From a virus: DNA of 64,000 bases. Made by a program: the position numbers and the translations under genes. The stretch covers positions 1 to 64,000 of the IMG/VR virus record IMGVR_UViG_3300025117_000042. One strand, given 5' to 3'. The notes below the pieces were generated by a model. The model saw nothing but the letters and a program-made list of their open reading frames with translations. It had not been told where the DNA came from and searched no databases. Of this stretch, positions 15,770 through 28,228 are shown one piece after another. Each line of letters starts with the position of its first letter. The first letter of the stretch is position 1.

Positions 15770-18700
15770 TTGAAGCTATTTATAAAGTCTGACTACGTGC
15801 GTGTTCAGCATGGCAAGCTTCAGCATGTGCATGATAAGCGTATAAAGCATATCATACCGCTCAAAGGCAGATCTTCTGCATCAGTAAGTCTCCGGTTGGG
15901 TAATGATGGTGCTCTGGACTTCAAAACGATCCTACAGGAGAATCCTAAGCTAATAGATAAGCATGCTCTAGCTGTGCAGGGCTATGTAGGCTTTAAAGCT
16001 AAACAGGGAGAGTCTTCTGAGCAAACTATCAAACGTCTAATAAATCATTTGACTGATAACCTAAGCTGGTTGTATGACCAGATACCGGAAGCAGAGCGCA
16101 AGCAAACAAGACAATGGTACGATGGAGCTAACAAGATAGCTAATGATTGGGCGAAGAAGTATAAGCTGCCAGTGCCTCAAGTTGCCGGTGTAATCGCCTG
16201 TATGTCTCCTCAGCTGGAGTGGTATCAAAACTTGCATCTCGCACAACATATAATAGAAACGTACCAAGGTAAAGACAAGCTCAAATGGGCCGATGGGATG
16301 GCTGAGCAGATCGAACCCAAGGTATTGGCTGAACTTAAGGGAAAAGCCCTGTCTGAGGTCGAGGATGAGGGTTTAAGGGCTATTTGGGTATTGGCTTATA
16401 ACAAGTCTCAGGATAAATCCTCTGTTGATATCTATTCACCTGAAGGTGAAAAGGTAGGACAGCAGGGTCAGACCTACTGGTTCACATCAGCTGCTATAAT
16501 AGCAAAAGCCTGGAACATCCTTGAAGGTAGGCCGATCACAAATAACCTCAGTAAAGCTCACAAAGTAAGGAACTTCTATAACAATATAATAGATCCTAGT
16601 GATGCTGAGAGTGTAACCATTGATACTCATGCTATTGCAGCAGCTTACCTTGCACCTCTGGCTGGCAATGACATTGAAGTGTTACACAACTTTGGTGCTG
16701 CCGCTGGTAAAGGTGAGGTATCACCTGGAACTGCTGCCGGTGTGCTTGGAACATATTACATTGCAGCAGATGCTTATCGTAAAGCCGCACAGAAGGTGGG
16801 TTTACTGCCAAGAGAACTACAATCTATTATATGGGACTTTATCAAGAACAAGTTTGATAAGGGACTCAAAATCAGTAGTGCATCCAGTAAGGAGCTAAAA
16901 AATGCCTGGAGTGAGTATACAGCTGGAAAAAGGAGCCTTGAATCAGTCAGAGCAGAAGTCTCCAAACGATGGAACCAATCCGATTCTAAAGCTTATGGCA
17001 GATCTAAAGCTTCCGATGACAAGGGAAAGCTACATAAAAGTTTGTTTTGGATTGAACGTGAAGGAGAGCGACCTGGGAGCGGAGTTCTTAGCAGAACTAC
17101 CAGATTTACCTTAGCAAAGTCTGATTATATAAGAGTGCGCCTGGGTAGACTTGAGCATGTACATGACAGACGTATACGCAAAGAAAAGCCACAGTCATTT
17201 TATAATGGTCTTACAAAGATAAGCGGCCCATTGGGTAGTAATCCAGGCGGAATATACCAGGACAACAACGGCACAAAGTACTATGTGAAGATCCCGGCTA
17301 ATCAGGACACTGCTATCAATGAGGTAGTAGCCAATAAGCTTTATGAGCTTGCCGGTGTCAAAGTGCCTGAACTTGATCTAATAGATGCCAACGGTAAGCT
17401 GGGTGTGGCAGGTAAATGGATGCAGATGGATGCTGAACGTGTAACTCCTGATAAGGAAGGAGTCTATTCTGGCTTTGTTACTGATGCTTGGCTTGCCAAT
17501 TGGGATGTAGTAGGTATGAGCTACGATAACCTTATGTTAGCTGATGGACAGGCTGTGCGTGTGGACACCGGAGGAGCCTTACTGTACCGAGCCAGGGGAG
17601 AGCGTAAAGGAGCTGCTTTTGGGCCTGCGGTTACTGAGCTGCAAACCTTGCGCGATCCATCCTTGAACGAAACCTCAGCTTCTGTTTTTGCTGGTATTCC
17701 TTTGAGTGCTATTAGAAGTAGTGCTGAAAACGTACTCAATATCCCCAAGAAAGCCATTGTAGACACTGTTAACACCTATGGCTCTAAATGGGATGATATA
17801 ACGAAGCAGCATGTTATTGACACATTGTTGGCAAGGCAAGCTTATATACACAATCTATTCACTACATTTGTACTCAAGTCTGAATATTATAGAGTTCGTA
17901 ACGGTAAACTTGAGTATGTACATGATGGTAGAACAAAGCATCAGGTGTTTCATTACAGTAAGAATCACAATCTTGTTAGGCTTGATCCTACGTACTATGG
18001 AACAGGTATGGCAGGAGGTGAGACTAAACGTAAGAAAACAGATCCTGAGAATTGGGTTGATCGCACTTACTTTTATGTAGGTGAGCACCACACTAAAGAA
18101 GATGGCCTGGGTCAGCATAAGTATATATCAGAGTTCGATCCTAAAGAGATATATGACTTTGCTTCAGATCCAGATAGTCTTCAGTCAACTTCAATAGATT
18201 TCGGGAAGTTCTCTGTTACGAAATACGAAAAGAAGATAAAAGAGGCTGGATACAAAGGTTTTATAGTACATCACCCTCAGCTTGGTAGTGTAATAGCTGC
18301 TTTTTATCCTCAGTCAGTAGATAAGTTGTCGAAAGCTGGGTATATAGCAGTTGACCTGAACAATAGTAAGTTTACTGTCAGTAAATCAGATTATGTCAGG
18401 ATTAGAAACGGTAAACTTGAACATGTACATGATAAGCGTGTTAAGAAGGATAAAAGGTTAGACAGAGCTGTAGCTTCACTGCATAAGTCTATGGATGAGA
18501 TAAAGCATTTGGTAGATCATGAAGAGTGTAGGGTTATAGCACCTGATGGCAAGGTAATTTTCAAGAAAGGTGGAAGCAAGTCTCAAATATCTTTTGTAGA
18601 AGAAGAAATGGCCTTATTCAAAGGTTGCTCTTTTATACATAATCATCCCTCTGGAAGTTCATTCTCACTAGAAGATATAAACTTTGCTATTAAAACAGGA

Positions 18701-18982
18701 ATGAAAGAAATATATGCTGTACATGATGGATTAGTATATAAAATGCATATACCTCAAGGTATATCGGATTTGTATGCTTGGTGGGATACTAAAGGAATTC
18801 TTCTTTATTGGCAATTAGACACAGAGTTAAAGAAAGACTTTACAGCACAGATACAAAGTGGAAAGTTAGCTATAGAAGATGCTAACAAGTTGCACCATCA
18901 TGTCTTGTGGAATAGGTTTACCCATGAGGTTAAGTATGCGTTTAAGGTTGATAGTTTTGTATATAGTAAGGAGACAAGGTAA
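15770..18982 (+). CDS. four-domain effector polyprotein (helical glycosylase-like; HipA/PI3-4K-like kinase; ART-like; JAB), each domain preceded by the same 19-aa motif
   Basis: motif at aa 6, 450, 703, 872; KVRNFYNN..VTIDTHA; GSNPGG..YYVK..NE..NWD..N..RVDTGG; HYS..YFY..AGY.G; E..HNHPSGSSFSLED. Confidence 0.8.
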   Translation: MKLFIKSDYVRVQHGKLQHVHDKRIKHIIPLKGRSSASVSLRLGNDGALDFKTILQENPKLIDKHALAVQGYVGFKAKQGESSEQTIKRLINHLTDNLSWLYDQIPEAERKQTRQWYDGANKIANDWAKKYKLPVPQVAGVIACMSPQLEWYQNLHLAQHIIETYQGKDKLKWADGMAEQIEPKVLAELKGKALSEVEDEGLRAIWVLAYNKSQDKSSVDIYSPEGEKVGQQGQTYWFTSAAIIAKAWNILEGRPITNNLSKAHKVRNFYNNIIDPSDAESVTIDTHAIAAAYLAPLAGNDIEVLHNFGAAAGKGEVSPGTAAGVLGTYYIAADAYRKAAQKVGLLPRELQSIIWDFIKNKFDKGLKISSASSKELKNAWSEYTAGKRSLESVRAEVSKRWNQSDSKAYGRSKASDDKGKLHKSLFWIEREGERPGSGVLSRTTRFTLAKSDYIRVRLGRLEHVHDRRIRKEKPQSFYNGLTKISGPLGSNPGGIYQDNNGTKYYVKIPANQDTAINEVVANKLYELAGVKVPELDLIDANGKLGVAGKWMQMDAERVTPDKEGVYSGFVTDAWLANWDVVGMSYDNLMLADGQAVRVDTGGALLYRARGERKGAAFGPAVTELQTLRDPSLNETSASVFAGIPLSAIRSSAENVLNIPKKAIVDTVNTYGSKWDDITKQHVIDTLLARQAYIHNLFTTFVLKSEYYRVRNGKLEYVHDGRTKHQVFHYSKNHNLVRLDPTYYGTGMAGGETKRKKTDPENWVDRTYFYVGEHHTKEDGLGQHKYISEFDPKEIYDFASDPDSLQSTSIDFGKFSVTKYEKKIKEAGYKGFIVHHPQLGSVIAAFYPQSVDKLSKAGYIAVDLNNSKFTVSKSDYVRIRNGKLEHVHDKRVKKDKRLDRAVASLHKSMDEIKHLVDHEECRVIAPDGKVIFKKGGSKSQISFVEEEMALFKGCSFIHNHPSGSSFSLEDINFAIKTGMKEIYAVHDGLVYKMHIPQGISDLYAWWDTKGILLYWQLDTELKKDFTAQIQSGKLAIEDANKLHHHVLWNRFTHEVKYAFKVDSFVYSKETR
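15785..15841 (+). repeat. KS-hairpin motif A, copy 1 (KSDYVRVQHGKLQHVHDKR)
   Basis: peptide repeat read from translation. Confidence 0.95.
17117..17173 (+). repeat. motif A, copy 2 (KSDYIRVRLGRLEHVHDRR)
   Basis: peptide repeat. Confidence 0.95.
17876..17932 (+). repeat. motif A, copy 3 (KSEYYRVRNGKLEYVHDGR)
   Basis: peptide repeat. Confidence 0.95.
18383..18439 (+). repeat. motif A, copy 4 (KSDYVRIRNGKLEHVHDKR)
   Basis: peptide repeat. Confidence 0.95.
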
Positions 18983-21546
18983 TGTTTATATTAGATGATT
19001 CTGAAATCTTGGAACCTGTGTACAAAAAAGAGGACTTTCCTGAACTATTTGCAGAAGGAAAGAAGGACATAAAGAAGTCAATGGCAGTAACTGTACCTAC
19101 ATCCAAAATCAATCCGATGTTGGTTCCTATACAAAAGGTAGTCCATAAAAAGGGTAAAACTCATACCCAAGTATATTGGGTAAACCCGCATGTTGATACC
19201 AAAGTATTGCTGAACACAAAAAAGGTTGAGATGGCACATGAGCTGGCTAAGCTCGAAACCTTCCCGGTAAAGGATGCATGGAAGAAGTTTATGCATGTTA
19301 CTGAGCCTGTAACGCTCCCTGAAGTTGGGGAGGTCAAGATGAACGTGTCAAGGAGTTTCAGTTTCTCAGAAGAGGGGCTGAACTTTGAGTTCTTCAGTCC
19401 AAATACTAATAGATCAGTCACCTATAGTTTGCCTAAAGGGGATACAGTAAGGCTGGACAGTTTGCACATGAATAATCCAGTTGTAAATAAGCAGATGCTT
19501 ATTGAAAGCTTCTCCTGGCTCAGTAGGCAAGGCATTACAAACGTAAAATATACGCGACCTGTGAACGATACTGCCAATGAGATATCAGCAATGCTTGAGA
19601 ACAGTTTCTCAGCAGTTAAAGATAAAGTTGATAACTATGTTAACTTCTATGTTGATATTACAAAGTATCGTAAAGAAGATAACGTTGAGACATATGCTGA
19701 CTATGCACATGTTAGAAACACAACTGAAAAGGTCATGGAGCTGTACGAGGTAGATGACAGCCGTTCAGCTGTGATTGCCTTTGTAGAGAAACTGTACAAA
19801 GAAGACAAGGATACGTTCATTGCTGTAATAGCTGAGTTGTATGCACTGTCTCCTGCTACAGTTTTAGCTGAAATACACAATATAGTAATAGATAATCCTG
19901 ATTTACGTTACGGCATCTCATCTGTAATAGATTTGTTCAGTACCGGTCATAATATCAGTTTAGCAACAACTTCAGATGTTGTTGAAACAGCAACGTTAGT
20001 ATCAACATTGACTGAAAGTTGGAAAGGTAGCTCAAGATCTTTGGGTGCTCAGCTGTTGCAGTATTATGTAGCAGATCTTACTGGCACTACTAAGCCTTCG
20101 TTTTTCAATCACAATTGTAGTGAGGAGATGTTTAATAGCTTTGTAAAATGGCTACATGGTTCTAACGTAGAAGCTAATATAAAAAGATATGTAAAAGATG
20201 TGTATGAGACTACACAAAAAGAGCTTAAAGCAAAGTATTATGCAGAAAAAAAGCTATCAGAAGAGCCTTCTGATGATTATATGATTACGCTTTACAGGGG
20301 TGTAACTAGCAGCTATAACACATCATCTACCCTGGAGAGCTGGACTGAATCATCAGATGTAGCTTACGACTTTGATGGTTCAGATGTATTTAGAAGAGAC
20401 ATACCTATCAAAGCTGTATACGTGTTCTGGAAGAGTAAGAATTGGCTGCACAAAGAAGTAGGTAGTGTATTTGAGACAGAGAAGGAGCATGTATTGATTA
20501 CTGATATGATACCAGCAGCTTTAATAGAAGATGAAAAGGAAAAGAAATTGACAGCAACAGATCGACTTGCTGAGATAAAAGATCTATTGATTACTATAGC
20601 TGATGCTAATTCTGTCTATTTTCACGCAGGATCTGCTTATGGGGAAGACATAGAGTTACTGAAGTTGGCTATTGTATATGCGGGTGGCGCACATACCAAT
20701 GACCTGAAGAATGCGTTCAATCTGAGTTATGAGGACGCTGAACAGGCATCGGAAGCTATTAATAAGTATTGGAAGAACTATCAGATAGATGAAATGTTGG
20801 ATGAAGCTAAGTACACAGAGCATCCTGAACAGCTTGAAGTTCAGCCTTATGATACTGCTGTAGCTATGCTCAGTCCTAACTTTGTCGTAGATCCACTTAA
20901 CAGACAACATATAATAGACATGATTAATTTTGTAGGTATGGGGAATGTAACAGCACAAGGTATAGCAAACAAGTTGTTACTGCCTGATGACAAAGCCCTG
21001 GAGCTGTATCAGAAGTTAGAAAATAATTGGCACACTATATGGGAAAATACCCAATTCAGTATGGAAGATTCTAAAAAAATGTCTGAAATGGCAATAAGTG
21101 AGGCTATATCAGAGTCAGGTGGGGAAAGCAAATTGCTGTTTGCTGATGAGTTGTCTGAAGTGTGGGCTAAATCATACTTAGATAATCCAGCTAATACCAC
21201 ATATTTTTTTACTACAGAACAGAGAGCAAAGCTTAACTATATATTAGACTACGTACAGGAATACCCAAAGGTAATGCAATCCGGGCTGTGGTCAGATCAA
21301 GCCAAAGATATAATAAACAAGTACAGGGATGCTTTGGCTGAAGAGAACAATATGAAGTCGATTGCAGATTACATAAAGGTAAAGGGTATAGATGACGTTA
21401 AAGAATCTGCGTTAAAAACCCTTTACAATTGGTTAGGCCCAAAAGTAGCTAATCAAACTCATTTGGTACTTGGGATGACAAGTGAGGAAACCGATTCTCT
21501 GTATACAAGGCTTGATGATATGTATGGTGTTTTTGCAGGACTCTAA
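18982..21546 (+). CDS. R-S-ExE ADP-ribosyltransferase domain protein with N-terminal K|S site and hairpin motif B (putative capsid cargo)
   Basis: TLYRGV (20287-20304), ESWT (20335-20346), ETEKE (20473-20487); IKKS...LVPIQKVVHKKGKTHTQVYWV. Confidence 0.7.
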   Translation: MFILDDSEILEPVYKKEDFPELFAEGKKDIKKSMAVTVPTSKINPMLVPIQKVVHKKGKTHTQVYWVNPHVDTKVLLNTKKVEMAHELAKLETFPVKDAWKKFMHVTEPVTLPEVGEVKMNVSRSFSFSEEGLNFEFFSPNTNRSVTYSLPKGDTVRLDSLHMNNPVVNKQMLIESFSWLSRQGITNVKYTRPVNDTANEISAMLENSFSAVKDKVDNYVNFYVDITKYRKEDNVETYADYAHVRNTTEKVMELYEVDDSRSAVIAFVEKLYKEDKDTFIAVIAELYALSPATVLAEIHNIVIDNPDLRYGISSVIDLFSTGHNISLATTSDVVETATLVSTLTESWKGSSRSLGAQLLQYYVADLTGTTKPSFFNHNCSEEMFNSFVKWLHGSNVEANIKRYVKDVYETTQKELKAKYYAEKKLSEEPSDDYMITLYRGVTSSYNTSSTLESWTESSDVAYDFDGSDVFRRDIPIKAVYVFWKSKNWLHKEVGSVFETEKEHVLITDMIPAALIEDEKEKKLTATDRLAEIKDLLITIADANSVYFHAGSAYGEDIELLKLAIVYAGGAHTNDLKNAFNLSYEDAEQASEAINKYWKNYQIDEMLDEAKYTEHPEQLEVQPYDTAVAMLSPNFVVDPLNRQHIIDMINFVGMGNVTAQGIANKLLLPDDKALELYQKLENNWHTIWENTQFSMEDSKKMSEMAISEAISESGGESKLLFADELSEVWAKSYLDNPANTTYFFTTEQRAKLNYILDYVQEYPKVMQSGLWSDQAKDIINKYRDALAEENNMKSIADYIKVKGIDDVKESALKTLYNWLGPKVANQTHLVLGMTSEETDSLYTRLDDMYGVFAGL

Positions 21547-21617: not shown

Positions 21618-23147
21618 ATGTCTAAGTTCAATTTCTGGAACTATGCTGTCAGTAAGGTTTTCGGAAAACAGATTGAAGTAATAGCAGAGAGCAAGGCAGA
21701 TGATTATATTCAGAAAGCATTGGGTGACAACGTAAGAGCCGATCAAAGATCTTGGCTATTAGACATACTCAACGCTCAAACTGCTATGGGATTTAAAGAG
21801 AATCCAGCAGCTATTACATACAATACACTCCGCAAGGTTTCCCGCAAAAACCCTATCATAGCAGCGATTATAGGCACCAGGATAAATCAAGTGTGTTCCT
21901 TCTCCAAACAGGTCGATGTTATGGAGTTTTCTGCCAATAAGCCTATAGGGTTCAAAGTAGTGCATAAGCGTAAGCATCGGGAAGATATGAACGAGGCAGA
22001 GAAGAAGTTTGCAAACGAGCTGGAAGATTTTATTACATACTGTGGCTATACCGATAGATTCAGGACAGGCCGGAAGCGGGATAACTTCACTGACTTCTTA
22101 CGTAAGGTAACAAGGGATCGGCTGGTGTTAGATCAGATGTGCTTTGAACGTGTATTAAACAAAGCGAAAGAACCAGCTGAAATATTTGCTGTGGACGCTG
22201 CTACAATCAGGCTTGCTTCAGAAGAGAGCATGAATGATGGTGTAGGTTATTGTCAGGTTGTCCAGGGTCAGGTTGTGAATGAGTATACCTGGGCTGAAAT
22301 GGCTTTCTGTATCAATAACCCTGTTAGTGATATAAATCAGTACGGATATGGATTTTCAGAGCTTGAGCAGCTGATTTCGGTTGTTACAGCTCTTTTTTAT
22401 TCAGACACGTATAATACAAAGTTCTTCTCTCAGGGGTTGGGTGCTCAAGGCATCTTAAATATCGTTACAAAGGATGGTGCTATTCCCACCGATCTTATGG
22501 AAGCGTTCCGGTCACAGTTCCAGGCTACAGCTGCTGGTGCAGCTAACGCATGGAAGACTCCGATCATGAATGCTGACAAGCTGGATTGGATCAATTTGAA
22601 ACAGTCTAATAAAGATATGGAGTTTGTTAAGTGGGTTGAGTATCTAATAAAACTTGCTTGCGCTATCTATCAGATATCTCCTGAAGAAATCAATTTTGAA
22701 ACCAGAGGTTCTGGTAGTTCTTCGATGTTTGAGTCTAATCCTGAAGGACGGCTTAAATACAGCAAGGACAAAGGGCTAAGACCGCTGCTTACCTTTCTGT
22801 CAGATCATATCACTGAACACTTCGTTGAGCCTTATTCTCTGGATTATATGATGATTTTTACTGGTCTGGATGAAAAGGAAGAGAAGGATGCAGCTGAAAT
22901 CCGTAAAATAGAAGTTGAGTCTTATAAAACTCTTGATGAAGTACGTGCAGAAGCACAACTAGACCCTCTTGGTGAGGAGAATGGCGGTAATCTGGTACTC
23001 AATCCTCAGTATATTACACATAAGAACCAACAGGCCATGATTGAGCAGCAGAAAGAGATGCAAGCCAGCTTGGGTAGTGGTTTTAGTAGTAGCTATGAAG
23101 ACAGTAATAGTGTGAAACGTGGAGTCAAGAGTGGAAAAGACGAATAA
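21618..23147 (+). CDS. portal protein
   Basis: FLRKVTRDRLVLDQMCFE, FAVDAATIR, GYGFSELE, DMEF.KW..YLI...CAIY.I.P.EINF, SKDKGL.PLL, TLDEVR. Confidence 0.95.
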   Translation: MSKFNFWNYAVSKVFGKQIEVIAESKADDYIQKALGDNVRADQRSWLLDILNAQTAMGFKENPAAITYNTLRKVSRKNPIIAAIIGTRINQVCSFSKQVDVMEFSANKPIGFKVVHKRKHREDMNEAEKKFANELEDFITYCGYTDRFRTGRKRDNFTDFLRKVTRDRLVLDQMCFERVLNKAKEPAEIFAVDAATIRLASEESMNDGVGYCQVVQGQVVNEYTWAEMAFCINNPVSDINQYGYGFSELEQLISVVTALFYSDTYNTKFFSQGLGAQGILNIVTKDGAIPTDLMEAFRSQFQATAAGAANAWKTPIMNADKLDWINLKQSNKDMEFVKWVEYLIKLACAIYQISPEEINFETRGSGSSSMFESNPEGRLKYSKDKGLRPLLTFLSDHITEHFVEPYSLDYMMIFTGLDEKEEKDAAEIRKIEVESYKTLDEVRAEAQLDPLGEENGGNLVLNPQYITHKNQQAMIEQQKEMQASLGSGFSSSYEDSNSVKRGVKSGKDE

Positions 23148-24123
23148 CATCACATTTGTAATAGACAAGTCTTACTATACACGCATCCGTCATGGCAAGC
23201 TTGAGCATGTACATGATAATAGAGTGCGTAAGACTCCAGAGAAAAATTCTGATTTGCGTATCACCATTAAAGAACTCAACAGAGCTTTGACTAAAGGCAC
23301 TGTAGGTATAATTTCAGCTGGCAGGAATACTAATAGTGAAAAAGATCTGCAACTGACAGAAGAAGAGATTGAGAAGCGATACGCCGATCTTGAGAATAAG
23401 CTATTAAAAGATGGTAGAGCCTTTATACGGGCAAAAGGTGTATGGGAAGGCGGGGAAGAGCGGTCTTATATTGTAGCTATTCCTAACAAAGACAGAAGTT
23501 ATCTGATAAAGCTTGGTGTCAAGTACAACCAGGATTCAGTTATATTTGTCAACGAAGGCAGGAATGAGTACATCTACTGTACAGGCCCGAACAAAGGTCA
23601 ATGTCATATCGGCAAGAAGTTCGAAGAAGTAGCAGCTGACATACCATCGGGTTACACTGAGATAGATGCAGTCGGTGCTTCACCATATAAGTTTGCTCTT
23701 GACTTCGACTTTGATAATACAAAACCAGTTAGAAAATCTTACGTAGTAGAAATGATTGCGAAGTCAGACTACGTGCGGGTTCGTAACGGTAGGCTTGAGT
23801 ATGTGCATGATACAAGGGTAGCTCATCCGGTTGAACGTCGTTCAGCTGAGTCAGAAATTGAGTTTGATACACAGCTGAAGGTGTGGGATATGGAACTGGA
23901 GAATCTTACGCGGAAAGAGCATGCTGTAGACTTCATGGATGCACAGTCTCTAATAGAGATATCAAAGAAGAAAGCAGATATCTACACTGCCATGATTGCT
24001 GCCCTGGAGCCTAGAGTAAGTAAGATCGAAGATAAGCCTCGCTATGATTTCGACATGCGCGATACTTTGCTGCATGAGATAAAAATTCCACCTAAGCTAC
24101 TGACAGTCAAAGGAGCGGATTAA
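23119..24123 (+). CDS. two-module cargo protein: SAM lyase (T3 SAMase/DUF3293-like) plus small helical domain, each after motif A
   Basis: IISAGR...GVWEGGEERSYIV...LGVKYNQDSVIF...FEEV...GYTEID; start could be GTG 23131 (GGAG RBS). Confidence 0.75.
   Translation: MESRVEKTNNITFVIDKSYYTRIRHGKLEHVHDNRVRKTPEKNSDLRITIKELNRALTKGTVGIISAGRNTNSEKDLQLTEEEIEKRYADLENKLLKDGRAFIRAKGVWEGGEERSYIVAIPNKDRSYLIKLGVKYNQDSVIFVNEGRNEYIYCTGPNKGQCHIGKKFEEVAADIPSGYTEIDAVGASPYKFALDFDFDNTKPVRKSYVVEMIAKSDYVRVRNGRLEYVHDTRVAHPVERRSAESEIEFDTQLKVWDMELENLTRKEHAVDFMDAQSLIEISKKKADIYTAMIAALEPRVSKIEDKPRYDFDMRDTLLHEIKIPPKLLTVKGAD
23167..23223 (+). repeat. motif A, copy 5 (KSYYTRIRHGKLEHVHDNR)
   Basis: peptide repeat. Confidence 0.95.
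23761..23817 (+). repeat. motif A, copy 6 (KSDYVRVRNGRLEYVHDTR)
   Basis: peptide repeat. Confidence 0.95.
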
Positions 24124-25187
24124 TGGATTTTGTAATAGAAAAATCAGTAAGAGCCGGTCTGATTCCTATAAGAAAGACTGTCACTCAAAACGGTAGAACC
24201 TTTCAGAGGACGTACTGGTGTAAACAGAAGGATCTGCAAAGCTTCAATGCTACAGCTCCTGCTGTCGAGTTTCTTGCTGCCAGTATAGAGACTCAGAAAG
24301 AGATGATGGATATTGTTTCACAGCTTGAGGACTATAATCAGGGACTCGCTGCTGAAATATACAACGAAATGCAAAAGAGTGGTGAAACGTCTATTAAAAT
24401 AGCTGATAAGATCGCTAAAGTGTCTGATTGGGTTACTGCCAGGGAAACCAACATGACCACCTTTCTCGCTGGTATGAGACAGCTGCTGAATGAGAAAGGC
24501 AAGATCGACATGGCAGATCTAGCTAAGACCTACCAGGATGTGTCTTATCAGTACCATAAGATGGGCCTGGAGCTTTCCACTGTCAATGCTGAAGGTAAAG
24601 AGAAACCTCTGAAAAAGATGGGAGTCATTCAGGATCTTGTTCCTATGAACTGGACTGATACTGTCAAGGAAGTAGGAGCTGCTTTGCGTGAATCTATTAA
24701 AAACGGTCTGACTACCTTACGTGCTGTATGGGGTAAGCTGGGCCGAGCCAAGATACCTAAACAGCCAGAGGAGCTTGATTACAGGCTGAAGGAGAACAAG
24801 GGTAAGCTGGAAGAGCTGTACGAGGAGTACCAGAAGCAAGCTCCAGATCTACGACCTCCGAAACGTAAGCTCACTGAGGAGCAAAAGCTTGCCCTGGAAG
24901 GTACTCCAGCTCCTGCTCCTAAAGGTGATAATAAGAAGAAATTCACTATCAATCCTGAAGCTCCTATGAAGAAGAAACCTGCAAAGAAAGCTCCAGATAA
25001 CATTGATATTAGCAAAATAAGTTATAAGCGTCCTGAAGATATTACTATGAAAGAGCTTAAAGCTATCAAGAAACAGGCTGAGACACAGTTCAAACAGGTT
25101 GTTGCTGAGTATGGTTCATGGGAGAATGTACCTGAGCATGTTAAACATCTGATTATTTCACTAACGTTAAAGACAGGAGCGAAGTAA
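24123..25187 (+). CDS. putative internal head protein with FVIEK|S and hairpin motif B; helical body, Lys/Pro-rich tail
   Basis: MDFVIEKSVRAGLIPIRKTVTQNGRTFQRTYWC; between portal and protease. Confidence 0.65.
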   Translation: MDFVIEKSVRAGLIPIRKTVTQNGRTFQRTYWCKQKDLQSFNATAPAVEFLAASIETQKEMMDIVSQLEDYNQGLAAEIYNEMQKSGETSIKIADKIAKVSDWVTARETNMTTFLAGMRQLLNEKGKIDMADLAKTYQDVSYQYHKMGLELSTVNAEGKEKPLKKMGVIQDLVPMNWTDTVKEVGAALRESIKNGLTTLRAVWGKLGRAKIPKQPEELDYRLKENKGKLEELYEEYQKQAPDLRPPKRKLTEEQKLALEGTPAPAPKGDNKKKFTINPEAPMKKKPAKKAPDNIDISKISYKRPEDITMKELKAIKKQAETQFKQVVAEYGSWENVPEHVKHLIISLTLKTGAK

Positions 25188-25309
25188 TGGACAAGAAACT
25201 GGAAGCTGAACGACTCCTTTCATCCATACTTGAGTATTATAAGAAGCTGAACGCTACTCAATCCAAAGTACTTGAGACAATGAACTCAGTATTAGTCAAA
25301 AAGAGGTGA
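25187..25309 (+). CDS. 40-aa hypothetical protein (below ORF-track cutoff)
   Basis: AGGAG RBS, TAATG coupling; MDKKLEAERLLSSILEYYKK... Confidence 0.5.
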   Translation: MDKKLEAERLLSSILEYYKKLNATQSKVLETMNSVLVKKR

Positions 25310-25316
25310 TAGAGAA

Positions 25317-26123
25317 ATGAAACTGCATAAACCAGACTTTAAACTGTTCTTTGAATTCGATTGTATAGAAAAAGCTGAGGATGGAGAGAAATCTCGTAGA
25401 ATCTGTGGTTATGCTTCTACTGAGGCTCTGGACAAGCAAGGTGAAATCCTTGTACAGAAGGGGCTGGACTTTACTGACTTCCTGAAGTCTGGTTGGTTCA
25501 ACGATAACCATGATCGTACTACTACCGGTGTCCTGGGCTATCCTACCAAAGTAGAGTATCACGAAGGCAAGGGATGGTATGTTGAAGGCTACATGGTCAA
25601 GGGATACCGGAGGGCTGATGAGATTTGGGAGCTTGCCAATGCTCTGCAAAAGTCTAATAGACGATTGGGATTCTCAGTAGAGGGTAACAACGTAAAACGT
25701 GACTCAGTGCAGACTAACAAGGTATTGAAGTGTAAAGTTACAAATGTAGCTATTACACATTGTCCTGTTAATGCTGAGTGTACGATGGAAGTACTGGCTA
25801 AAAGCTTCTGTAGTCACTGTGAATCAGAAAAATGCATTGAGTGTAACGCTGATTGTGTTAAGTCTCTTGAGGCTGGATACGAGCAGTCAACCGATATGGA
25901 AGGTGGCGCAGCACTAAGAAAACAGAGCATTGACGGTGAATGTAAATGTCAGAAGGAAGGCAGCACTTGCAAGAAATGTAATAAAAAAACTGACAAGTCC
26001 ATGTTATCGTATAAAGAAGCAATGGACGTAATAGTAAATCGAGGGTATGATAAGAATCATGCCGAGAAGATATTATCACGTCTGGATGAACTAGGTTACT
26101 TTGAGACAAAAGTAGAAGAATAA
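25317..26123 (+). CDS. prohead (maturation) protease, HK97/assemblin-like fold
   Basis: GYASTEALDKQGE, NDNH, LGFSVEG, VAITHCPVN; position between portal and scaffold. Confidence 0.92.
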   Translation: MKLHKPDFKLFFEFDCIEKAEDGEKSRRICGYASTEALDKQGEILVQKGLDFTDFLKSGWFNDNHDRTTTGVLGYPTKVEYHEGKGWYVEGYMVKGYRRADEIWELANALQKSNRRLGFSVEGNNVKRDSVQTNKVLKCKVTNVAITHCPVNAECTMEVLAKSFCSHCESEKCIECNADCVKSLEAGYEQSTDMEGGAALRKQSIDGECKCQKEGSTCKKCNKKTDKSMLSYKEAMDVIVNRGYDKNHAEKILSRLDELGYFETKVEE

Positions 26124-26147: not shown

Positions 26148-26771
26148 ATGGCTGGTGAAGAAAAAGTTATCGCTCAGGATAAACTGGAAAAAGCTCTTGA
26201 AGGTCTGGATGAGCTTTTGAAAAGTGAAAAACCTGTCGATGACAAAGAAGAAAAAAAGGGCGAAGTAGAAGAAACAGAGGAAAAATCCTTTGCCAAAGTT
26301 GCTGAGGAAAATGAAACTCTGAATAAAAGCATGGATGTTGCTCCTTTCCTTGCCGAGCTGGTGAATGTAATTGGTGAGCACATGGACAACTCCGCAGCTT
26401 CCCTCAGTAAGTCAATGGTAGAGCAGAGAGAAAGTCAGGCTAAGTTCAACGAGAATCTGGTAAAGTCTCTGAAAGAACTTGGTGATGCACTTCTTTCTAT
26501 TACAAAACGTCAGGATGAACTTGAAAAAGAGCCTGTCGGTGTTAAGAAATCAATCACAGCCAAACCGGTTGAACGTCAATTCGCAAAATCTGGTGAGGAA
26601 GAAGGACAGGAACAGAGACTCACGAAGTCAATGGTTGCCAGTAAGATCACTGACCTGATTATCAAAGGCGAAATTGTTGGCGGTACTCCTGTTACTCAGG
26701 CCGAGCTTACCAAGTTTGAAGCAACCGGCCAGATGCGCCCTGAACTGAGAGAACTTTTCGTAAAAAAATAA
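26148..26771 (+). CDS. scaffolding protein
   Basis: acidic coiled-coil between protease and MCP; eight [LVF]xK[SA] sites. Confidence 0.8.
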   Translation: MAGEEKVIAQDKLEKALEGLDELLKSEKPVDDKEEKKGEVEETEEKSFAKVAEENETLNKSMDVAPFLAELVNVIGEHMDNSAASLSKSMVEQRESQAKFNENLVKSLKELGDALLSITKRQDELEKEPVGVKKSITAKPVERQFAKSGEEEGQEQRLTKSMVASKITDLIIKGEIVGGTPVTQAELTKFEATGQMRPELRELFVKK

Positions 26772-26809: not shown

Positions 26810-28228
26810 ATGTTTGAGAATGACGTTGAAGGATTTGGGATTGGTACTTCGCAGGATGTAGCAGAGCTTAACAAAGCTTTGACTGCTGGTTACGAAGAAA
26901 CCACAAGCATGACCGGTGGTGCGGCTCTGCGTGTTCAATCCCTGGAAAACACCCTTAAGCTTCTTACTTTCCGTGAAGACCACATGGTCATGTGGAAAGA
27001 CATTTCGAAACTCCCGGCTTACAGTACTGTTGAAGAATACAGTCAGCAGACTTCTGTAGGTAGCGACAATCCTGGGTTCACAGGCGAAGGTGTTGCGCCG
27101 GAAGAAGATGATTCTGGATATGCCCGTAAAGCATCCCTGGTTAAATTCCTTGGGACTACCCGCAAAATTACGCATCCGATGCAGTTGGTACGTACAATCA
27201 ATGGTGATGCAGTTGCACGTGAATCGACCAACGGTATCCTCAAAGTAATGCGTGATGCCGAATTCGGTCTGCTTTGGGGTAACAGTGATCTTGTATACAC
27301 TGCTGCTGGTACTACTCCTGAAGGTCTTGAGTGGGATGGCTTGAATGTACTGATCGACGCAACTAACGACCTTGACCTTTCCAATAGGAACTTGGAAGAG
27401 GGCGACTTTACAACTATGGGTGAAACCATTGCTAATAGCTTTGGCTACATCAATCGTTGTTACGTCCCTAATAGTGTAGCATCCACTCTGGATGTTTCCT
27501 TGCTACCTAAAGAGCGTATCGCCCTTCCTGGTGCAAACGGAATGGAAGTCGGCACCAACGTAGGATCTGTAAAAACTTCCTTCGGTAAAATTGCTGTTCG
27601 TCCTTCGTTGTTCATGGGGGCTGCTCTTACTGCTGGTCGTTCCCCGAAGAAAACCCCTCCGGCTGCTGCTACTTCCACCAAAGCTCCTGCTGCTCCAGCT
27701 TCCATAGCTGCTAGCTCTCTGACAGGTACTGATGGTAGATTCCGCGCAGCTCAGGTTGGTGTATGCACTTTTAAAGCCACCGCCTGTAACAGATACGGAG
27801 AGTCTGCTCCTACAGCTGCCACTAGCAACGTAACTGTTGGGGCTGGTGATGTTGCCAAACATATTCCTTTGGCAATTACAAACAGCGCATCGTCTGAGAC
27901 AGTTATTCCTGACTATTTCAACATCTACTGTTCTCCGGTAGGCACCGCAGCTTGGTATCTCGTTGCTTCCGTACCTTGTACTGATAAGACCAATAGTGGT
28001 ACAGGCGCATCTTATAACTATACTGGTTATATCATGCCAAACACTGCTATCTGTTTTGCTGGTCAGTTTGACAGTGAAATTCTGGTATTCAAACAGTTGG
28101 CTCCGATCATGAAAATGGACTTGGCAGTAATTGAGCCTTCCTATCGTTTCATGATTCTGCTGTACGGTGTTCCTCAGCTGTTTGCGCCTAAAAAACTTAT
28201 GCGTGTTATCAACGTCAAAGATTATTAA
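26810..28228 (+). CDS. major capsid protein (Herelleviridae-like, with Ig-like insertion)
   Basis: KALTAGY...GGAALRVQSLE, AYSTVEEY, VKFLG, EWDGL, LAPIMKMDLA...FMILLYG. Confidence 0.95.
   Translation: MFENDVEGFGIGTSQDVAELNKALTAGYEETTSMTGGAALRVQSLENTLKLLTFREDHMVMWKDISKLPAYSTVEEYSQQTSVGSDNPGFTGEGVAPEEDDSGYARKASLVKFLGTTRKITHPMQLVRTINGDAVARESTNGILKVMRDAEFGLLWGNSDLVYTAAGTTPEGLEWDGLNVLIDATNDLDLSNRNLEEGDFTTMGETIANSFGYINRCYVPNSVASTLDVSLLPKERIALPGANGMEVGTNVGSVKTSFGKIAVRPSLFMGAALTAGRSPKKTPPAAATSTKAPAAPASIAASSLTGTDGRFRAAQVGVCTFKATACNRYGESAPTAATSNVTVGAGDVAKHIPLAITNSASSETVIPDYFNIYCSPVGTAAWYLVASVPCTDKTNSGTGASYNYTGYIMPNTAICFAGQFDSEILVFKQLAPIMKMDLAVIEPSYRFMILLYGVPQLFAPKKLMRVINVKDY

Follow-up and report, generated by a model that had tools for sequence, protein, structure and literature searches.

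We analyzed a 64,000-nucleotide stretch of viral DNA, positions 1 to 64,000 of the IMG/VR record IMGVR_UViG_3300025117_000042 (here called the window), and found that a gene lying between its portal and prohead protease genes encodes an S-adenosylmethionine (SAM) lyase domain of the phage T3 type. The open reading frame (ORF), at 23131..24123 on the + strand, specifies a precursor of 330 amino acids (aa) in which the domain is bracketed by two copies of a short repeated element, motif A, each with a predicted protease site. In the best reading of these data, which taken as a whole chain we hold to be about equally apt to be right or wrong, the lyase is delivered as tagged head cargo. The source virus record is 103,540 bp long and was rated complete by CheckV.

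A T3-type SAM lyase domain in the head operon

The domain spans aa ~50-205 of the precursor (23266..23733, + strand). An earlier note, made by reading the DNA letters, had proposed a T3-type SAM lyase here from motifs of T3 SAMase (gp0.3), and both halves of that comparison hold up. The peptides it quoted are all present in the +1 frame of 23119-24123 (GIISAGR at aa 63-69, KGVWEGGEERSYIV at 106-119, IKLGVKYNQDSVIF at 130-143, YIYCTG at 151-156, and FEEVAADIPSGYTEID at 168-183), and the T3 motifs it listed, the EE and QD residues included, can all be found in the actual gp0.3 sequence, in unchanged order. The spacing between motifs is near-identical in the two proteins, except in the loop from G-x-Y/W to EE.

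Profile and structure comparisons bear out the assignment. The Pfam model S-AdoMet_lyase (PF23780) matches at 23308-23646 and, on the protein, at aa 64-175 with 35.1 bits (E=1.5e-8), above the curated cut-off of 28; it reached 37 bits in a six-frame search of the genome, and T3 gp0.3 scores 143 bits on it. An AlphaFold2 model of aa 45-209, built from a 50-sequence alignment, had a mean predicted local distance difference test (pLDDT) score of 94.3 and has the T3 SAMase fold, an antiparallel beta-barrel-like sheet with two outer helices. The Foldseek comparison that the earlier note had called for returned 8bb1_E, a T3 SAMase chain, as the top match in the PDB (E=2.3e-5, template modeling score 0.60/0.66), followed by 7OCK and then by the SAM lyase Svi3-3. 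An aligner independent of Foldseek matched 7ock_L with Z 12.1 (132/152 residues, root-mean-square deviation [rmsd] 3.4), with the next chain at 5.5, and a second structural comparison gave Z 13.2 for 8bb1_E (rmsd 3.4, 134 residues aligned), 12.3 for 7ock_J, and 6.1 and 5.5 for Svi3-3. Because the Z score is 13.2 to the T3 enzyme versus ~6 for Svi3-3, the conclusion that the domain is specifically a T3-type SAM lyase is well supported.

Residues implicated in SAM binding in known lyases have putative counterparts in the window domain, with Trp109 standing where Tyr is usual. G107-V-W109 and the doublet E113-E114 (23437..23460, + strand) correspond to G55-C-Y57 and E67-E68 of T3 and to G56, Y58, and E69 of Svi3-3, and Q138-D139-S140 (23530..23538, + strand) corresponds to Q94-D95-C96 of T3 and Q104-E105-S106 of Svi3-3; these equivalences come from collinear motifs and the Pfam match rather than from residue-level superposition. 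Svi3-3 G56, Y58, E69, Q104, and E105, and E68 of the T3 doublet, are reported to be both conserved and functionally important (PMC7877911). E113-E114 and Q138-D139-S140, Asp139 included, are conserved across 50-57 relatives; G107, E114, and S140 are nearly invariant, and Q138 is invariant in 50 and in 57 relatives.

The precursor is laid out as a short leader, motif A, the lyase domain, a linker with two K|S sites (the bar marks the predicted cut), a second motif A, a helical hairpin, and a disordered tail. Its start codon is likely the GTG at 23131 rather than the one at 23119, from which the ORF would have 334 aa: GGAG at 23120-23123 lies 7 nt ahead of the GTG at 23131, this ribosome-binding region is kept in a 54%-identical relative (L001), and public gene calls agree, with a public protein cluster of 330 aa. 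The helical hairpin (aa 244-304; 23848..24030, + strand) is modeled by AlphaFold2 as helices 244-268 and 275-304 with pLDDT ~85. It is conserved in L001 and in the homologue P0003 and had no family match; it may act as a scaffold-like anchor or be a second small cargo.

The portal gene (21618..23147, + strand; Pfam Phage_portal, E=1.7e-18; PHROG portal families, E down to 3e-43) shares its final 17-29 nt with the beginning of the lyase ORF, which precedes the gene for the prohead protease, the presumed processing enzyme (25317..26123, + strand; phrog_1028 head maturation protease, E=1.9e-61). The lyase ORF runs in the same direction as the protease, scaffold, and capsid genes, and this arrangement is kept in L001. 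The placement of the gene in a portal-to-protease block with shared tags, as first proposed from the letters, is correct. Promoter and terminator scans and the G+C profile around the lyase ORF gave no signal above chance and no G+C discontinuity. A programmed frameshift from portal into lyase, whose frame is +1 to that of the portal, was considered and deemed unnecessary, as the GGAG and start codon are conserved; no canonical slippery heptamer was noticed on reading the 29-nt overlap, which was not scanned systematically.

Motif A, predicted protease sites, and the proposed packaging

A motif A profile finds exactly six copies in the window, four in a 1070-aa multi-domain ORF upstream of the portal (15770..18982, + strand; DUF7178, E=4e-30) and two in the lyase ORF. 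In each copy, a hydrophobic strand with K|S at its end leads into a basic Gly-turn hairpin. Copies 5 and 6 had been said to bracket the domain, and they do. Copy 5 (23152..23253, + strand; motif hidden Markov model independent E-value [iE] 6.5e-21; phrog_21154) has the strand ITFVIDK|S and the hairpin SYYTRIRHGKLEHVHDNRVRK, with predicted cleavage at K17|S18 (23167-23172), and copy 6 (23749..23847, + strand; iE=6.7e-21) reads VVEMIAK|SDYVRVRNGRLEYVHDTRV. The extra VRK|S site noticed at the end of the domain is also real, as PVRK|S at aa 203-207 (23725-23739). It forms part of a linker (23725..23766, + strand) with two predicted sites, PVRK206|S207 and MIAK215|S216. All three sites of the precursor are conserved in L001 and P0003. 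A full-length model places beta-hairpins at aa 19-32 (low to moderate confidence) and 217-230 and is disordered at aa 1-19 and 207-217 (the latter with pLDDT <50); the three K|S sites all fall in disordered linkers and none within the lyase domain.

The sites follow a rule that we derived from enrichment in the head proteins, which is 6-8-fold in the scaffold of the window and of L001. The 207-aa scaffolding protein (26148..26771, + strand; phrog_15087) holds eight [LIVFMA]-x-K-[SA] sites, compared with 1.35 expected, and none of 2000 shuffles reached eight (0/2000); in L001, the scaffold holds 9 with 1.13 expected. The pattern occurs 4 times in the protease (1.0 expected), once in the major capsid protein (22|23), and is depleted in tail proteins. 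In the capsid protein (26810..28228, + strand; SU10_MCP; phrog_752, 4.5e-92), the site reads ELNK22|A23 and lies near the N-terminus. An enrichment of this kind is what a prohead-protease site would look like in sequence. In phage HK97, gp5 is cut after Lys and before Ser104.

Motif A itself is lineage-specific, because tblastn with its peptide gave no match in GenBank phages, and a degenerate DNA pattern for GKLE[HY]VHD recovered from IMG/VR only the window's lineage and chance matches. Relatives belonging to this lineage in IMG/VR are 3300025073_000032 and 3300025121_000483.

Considering the protease-site statistics, the disordered linkers, and the fusion of the same domain to portal, MuF, and protease proteins in other phages (described below), packaging of the lyase is plausible. 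The precursor would be made late, alongside the head genes, and co-assembled into the procapsid, where the prohead protease would cut it at the hydrophobic-x-K|S sites K17|S18, K206|S207, and K215|S216. The predicted products are one of ~189 aa (~21 kDa), containing the N-terminal basic hairpin and the lyase, and one of ~119 aa, containing a hairpin and the helical region. The lyase would then be ejected with the DNA and convert SAM to methylthioadenosine and homoserine lactone ahead of any phage gene expression, and the resulting loss of SAM would handicap defences that need it, among them type I/III restriction and BREX. A search for DNA methyltransferase families in the phage's own genome found none; with no recognizable enzyme of this kind, SAM loss would be harmless to any methylation strategy of its own.

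Other hairpins were seen in the window and its relatives. A second type that follows K|S, motif B, occurs as VPIQKVVHKKGKTHTQVYWVNP (19120-19182) in an 854-aa ORF and as IPIRKTVTQNGRTFQRTYWCKQ (24159-24221) in a 354-aa ORF, in both cases near the N-terminus. In L001, an extra 100-aa ORF (L001 12214-12516) that lies just upstream of the protease gene carries a seventh copy of motif A, and the corresponding 130-nt gap in the window (25188-25316) holds no counterpart. In unrelated IMG/VR phages, large lyase-like ORFs of four loci (L006 9152-12259, L013 8930-11614, L016 3863-6826, and L017 8963-14473) each carry their own near-identical pair of basic inter-domain hairpins; L013, for instance, has two copies of LxK|SHVKAHxRKTKSG, and L006 has two of PxGTVHxYxDGxxYKK. 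In L006 and L016 the domain lies between the two copies; the second copy in L013 lies near the C-terminal end of the domain, and both copies in L017 lie downstream of it, the first directly after. This suggests that such "punctuation" hairpins are a general feature of polyvalent proteins, the large multi-domain proteins discussed below.

The domain family and alternatives to a packaged SAM lyase

To place the domain among its relatives, we searched 1.84 billion representatives exhaustively with phmmer and obtained 385 clusters with E<=1e-3, of which 214 reach E<=1e-10, so that the family comprises at least 385 clusters at 50% identity, as a lower bound. The position of the domain varies within proteins of 145 to 2036 aa, and the subfamily, which has the signature ISAGRN...KYNQDS, overlaps DUF3293. 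Fusion partners were taken from Pfam scans of 70 multi-domain members. Head proteins are among them: portal in 7 (Portal_Mu, Phage_portal_2, Phage_portal), Phage_Mu_F in 1, and the Peptidase_S78 prohead protease in 1. RelA_SpoT is fused in 11 (11/57 representative proteins), NUDIX in 5, and the minimal CRISPR polymerase mCpol in 1, pairings that point towards nucleotide-signal conflicts. Zeta_toxin, InPase, and ART-PolyVal are each fused in several members, and further partners are ddrB-ParB/ParB, LPD1, topoisomerase IB, and SNF2 helicase. Four IMG/VR phages whose portals are ~36% identical to that of the window (L005, L006, L007, and L016) carry the lyase-like domain in a large ORF upstream of the portal; the lyase module therefore moves within the head block. 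Among the BFVD fold matches are large proteins of the "structural" or polyvalent kind as well as small SAM hydrolases from T3-like podoviruses.

The subfamily is almost absent from cultured phages. With the window's domain as query, tblastn found no match in 50,697 GenBank phage records or 72,556 PLSDB plasmids, and with a typical family member the only GenBank phage match was Myxococcus phage Mx1. The Mx1 match (OR576727; L038 8128-9807) is a 559-aa hypothetical protein whose gene lies directly upstream of that for the tail sheath; its PF23780/DUF3293 match is sub-threshold. Three further homologues (P0007, P0008, and P0009) have 213-235 aa and signal-peptide-like hydrophobic N-termini. Two of these, P0007 and P0008, may be cellular copies because they lie on very long contigs (336 kb and 946 kb); the longest contig with P0009 is 19 kb.

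Several points weigh against the delivery of a SAM lyase by the virion. Many other family members sit among non-structural genes, so head association is not universal. The motif A hairpins are modeled with low confidence, and their role as an address tag is conjecture. At position 109, at least 90% of relatives have Tyr, and the window domain and L001 have Trp; relative to T3 and Svi3-3, the loop from G-x-W to EE is shortened by 6 residues. Neither phmmer with the ORF nor hmmsearch with the 50-sequence profile matched a SAM lyase among PDB sequences, and an hhalign comparison between the family profile and the single T3 sequence was weak and partly out of register and was not used for residue mapping; the Pfam profile and the fold are therefore what ties the domain to SAM lyases. 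From sequence, the substrate is uncertain (SAM, SAM-AMP, or another compound), and a bacterial and a phage relative of SAM lyases cleave SAM-AMP, not SAM (PMC12255297). The kinetics are also demanding. With ~10 turnovers per second and ~1e5 SAM molecules per cell as inputs, we estimate that emptying the pool would take a few tens of injected molecules some minutes, with MetK producing SAM all the while. The pool size is the textbook value for E. coli, ~1e5 molecules per cell. The turnover is that of Svi3-3, roughly 10 per second (PMC7877911). It is thus doubtful that a few tens of molecules could drain such a pool unaided, and the slow estimated drain speaks for a lyase present in high copy number or acting locally, or for a low-abundance substrate.

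The association with non-structural genes would fit a late cytoplasmic enzyme that is never packaged and, for instance, keeps progeny DNA unmethylated or shuts down host SAM metabolism. T3 SAMase works as a free cytoplasmic enzyme (PMC8406200), late operons often gain accessory genes, and the evidence for packaging is not direct. We nevertheless judge this account unlikely, since motif A is common to the lyase ORF and the 1070-aa multi-domain protein of the portal region, protease-type sites coincide exactly with the domain borders, lie in disordered linkers, and are kept in L001, in other phages the domain forms covalent fusions with portal, MuF, and protease proteins, and a homologue, S-CREM2 gp6, was found in virions. 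Under a cytoplasmic role the flanking motifs would serve folding, protease regulation, or some other purpose.

In a second alternative, the lyase is packaged cargo with a different substrate: it may be a SAM-AMP lyase acting against type III-B CRISPR/CorA signaling, or may cleave another SAM-derived or sulfonium compound. A few injected molecules would more realistically destroy a low-abundance signal than a ~0.1 mM pool, the substrate loop is not of the same length as in T3, and the one mCpol and 11 RelA_SpoT fusions again point to nucleotide-signal conflicts. The relatives that cleave SAM-AMP rather than SAM include a phage enzyme with an extra N-terminal domain (PMC12255297). The Glu, Gln, and Asp residues that hold the methionine moiety do not discriminate between the two activities because they are common to SAM and SAM-AMP lyases. 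Against this alternative, the fold is far closer to the T3 SAM lyase (Z 13.2) than to PII-like Svi3-3 (Z ~6), the type to which the solved SAM-AMP lyase was compared (PMC12255297), and no SAM-AMP lyase chain was among the structural matches listed. Taking both sides together, we consider a substrate other than SAM to be a minority prospect.

Lastly, the Tyr-to-Trp change at position 109 could mark a module that has lost lyase activity and that, for example, binds and inhibits SAM synthetase as T3 SAMase does or serves as a protein internal to the head. Polymerizing MetK is a further mode of action of T3 SAMase (PMC8406200). The key Glu, Gln, and Gly are strictly retained in the window domain and in 54%-identical L001, and Trp can presumably still provide the cation-pi contact; a non-catalytic role is therefore very improbable in our judgment.

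Known SAM lyases are early-expressed anti-restriction and anti-BREX enzymes, and a pre-made lyase would close the interval from DNA entry to the first expression of a gene, the time at which SAM-dependent defences act. The subfamily is unnamed in the searchable polyvalent-protein literature. As it is large, unnamed, and repeatedly fused to portal, MuF, and protease proteins, virion-borne destruction of SAM or SAM signals may be common and overlooked. A broader and more tentative idea, which we would sooner doubt than accept, is that many uncultured phage heads load interchangeable enzyme cassettes tagged by a protease site and a basic Gly-turn hairpin, with the T3-type SAM lyase as one widespread cassette that destroys SAM or a SAM-derived alarm before the first transcript. 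Such cassette loading would be an undescribed, general, and pre-emptive route of counter-defence. Through the K|S site rule and hairpin tags, the addressing and processing of cargo in HK97-fold capsids becomes open to testing, and they could be reused for loading proteins into phage heads.

The head module and comparison with known systems

The lyase ORF belongs to a head module at 12.6-28.2 kb in which all genes are co-directional, in the order 1070-aa ORF, 854-aa ORF, portal, lyase ORF, 354-aa ORF, prohead protease, scaffold, and major capsid protein. The capsid protein has ~40% identity with those of SPO1/CP-51-type Herelleviridae, and megablast of the module against GenBank phages gave no match. 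The 854-aa ORF (18982..21546, + strand), which carries motif B, lies upstream of the portal, and the 354-aa ORF (24123..25187, + strand) begins with FVIEK|S followed by the motif B hairpin. The 1070-aa and 854-aa ORFs, in different frames, meet in a one-base stop/start overlap at 18982. The counterpart of window 15770-21546 in L001 is a single continuous ORF of 1923 aa (L001 2645-8416); this polyvalent protein is thus either split in the window or joined by an undetected frameshift.

Two further features of the module were observed. The last segment of the 1070-aa ORF (18632-18688), FIHNHPSGSSFSLEDINFA, reads as a JAB/RadC-type H-x-H-x7-S-x2-D metal site, and Pfam at E<=0.1 gave no match for this segment. 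The C-terminal part of the protease, SLEAGYEQSTDMEGGAALRKQS (25863-25928), mimics the capsid protein sequence ALTAGYEETTSMTGGAALRVQS (26885-26950), which lies just past the predicted K22|A23 cut. This mimicry is kept in L001 and is possibly the way in which the protease anchors inside the shell.

Compared with known systems, the lyase case combines known kinds, a T3-type SAM lyase and packaged polyvalent effectors, and is not a new category. The closest enzyme is T3 gp0.3 (SAMase; PDB 7OCK and 8BB1), which belongs to the same PF23780 family and fold (Z 12-13 over ~132-134 of ~150 residues) and has collinear SAxR, G-x-Y/W, EE, and QD(S/C) motifs. T3 SAMase is a dimer, and its fold was called unique by its authors (PMC8406200). 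The two sequences share ~18% identity, and the window domain differs in the loop before EE, shorter by 6, and in having Trp for Tyr. The T3 enzyme is a free 152-aa protein and the product of the first gene expressed, whereas that of the window is embedded in a 330-aa tagged precursor in a late head operon; MetK binding as in T3 SAMase cannot be inferred for it. Svi3-3 and the SAM-AMP lyases of Clostridium botulinum and phage (PII-like trimers; PDB 6ZM9) share the catalytic logic and the Gly/Glu/Gln binding residues, but the structural match to the Svi3-3 type is weaker (Z 5.5-6.1 over ~87 residues), and its oligomer and topology differ from those of T3 SAMase.

For presence in virions, there is a published precedent. 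The 2023 virion proteome of the Synechococcus phage S-CREM2 detected ORF6/gp6, a "SAM hydrolase," with 19 peptides by mass spectrometry of purified virions, and its authors suggest that gp6 enters the cell with the DNA and protects it (PMC10665884). We found that gp6 scores 70 bits on PF23780 and aligns to the subfamily profile with 95.7% hhalign probability, including the LGKKY(D/N)QDSV block. It is thus a virion-associated SAM lyase family member, with activity there putative. It differs in being 414 aa long, in lying among DNA-metabolism genes of a T4-like cyanophage outside the head module, and in having no motif A tags. Because this PF23780 homologue was in a virion proteome and the domain is a common module of head-associated polyvalent proteins, the earlier note overstated the matter in calling a virion-delivered SAM lyase unusual.

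Polyvalent proteins have been argued to be packaged in phage heads (Iyer et al. 2017; PMC5512222), and the lyase-like domain recurs in proteins of this kind, of 400-2000 aa, with ART-PolyVal, ddrB-ParB, InPase, Zeta_toxin, RelA_SpoT, LPD1, portal, and MuF. The names SAMase, AdoMet, and DUF3293 do not occur as domain names in the main text of that study (PMC5512222). The neighboring 1070-aa and 854-aa ORFs form such a protein; the lyase differs in having its own small ORF downstream of the portal, which holds only the lyase and a helical region. No zincin metallopeptidase or peptidase family was found in the lyase ORF or in the 1070-aa and 854-aa neighbors (Pfam E<=0.1), and processing appears, from the sequence, to be delegated to the prohead protease via the K|S sites.

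The proposed tagging scheme resembles that of T4 in its logic. In that phage, the prohead protease gp21 removes a capsid-targeting leader by the site rule L/I-x-E|. As is proposed for the lyase, the T4 internal proteins and Alt are late-made cargo with a short leader and a protease consensus site, delivered together with the DNA against host defence or for takeover. The proteins are unrelated, and the predicted site in the window is instead hydrophobic-x-K|S/A. Furthermore, the conserved basic hairpin of the window protein lies after the predicted cut and would remain on the mature protein.

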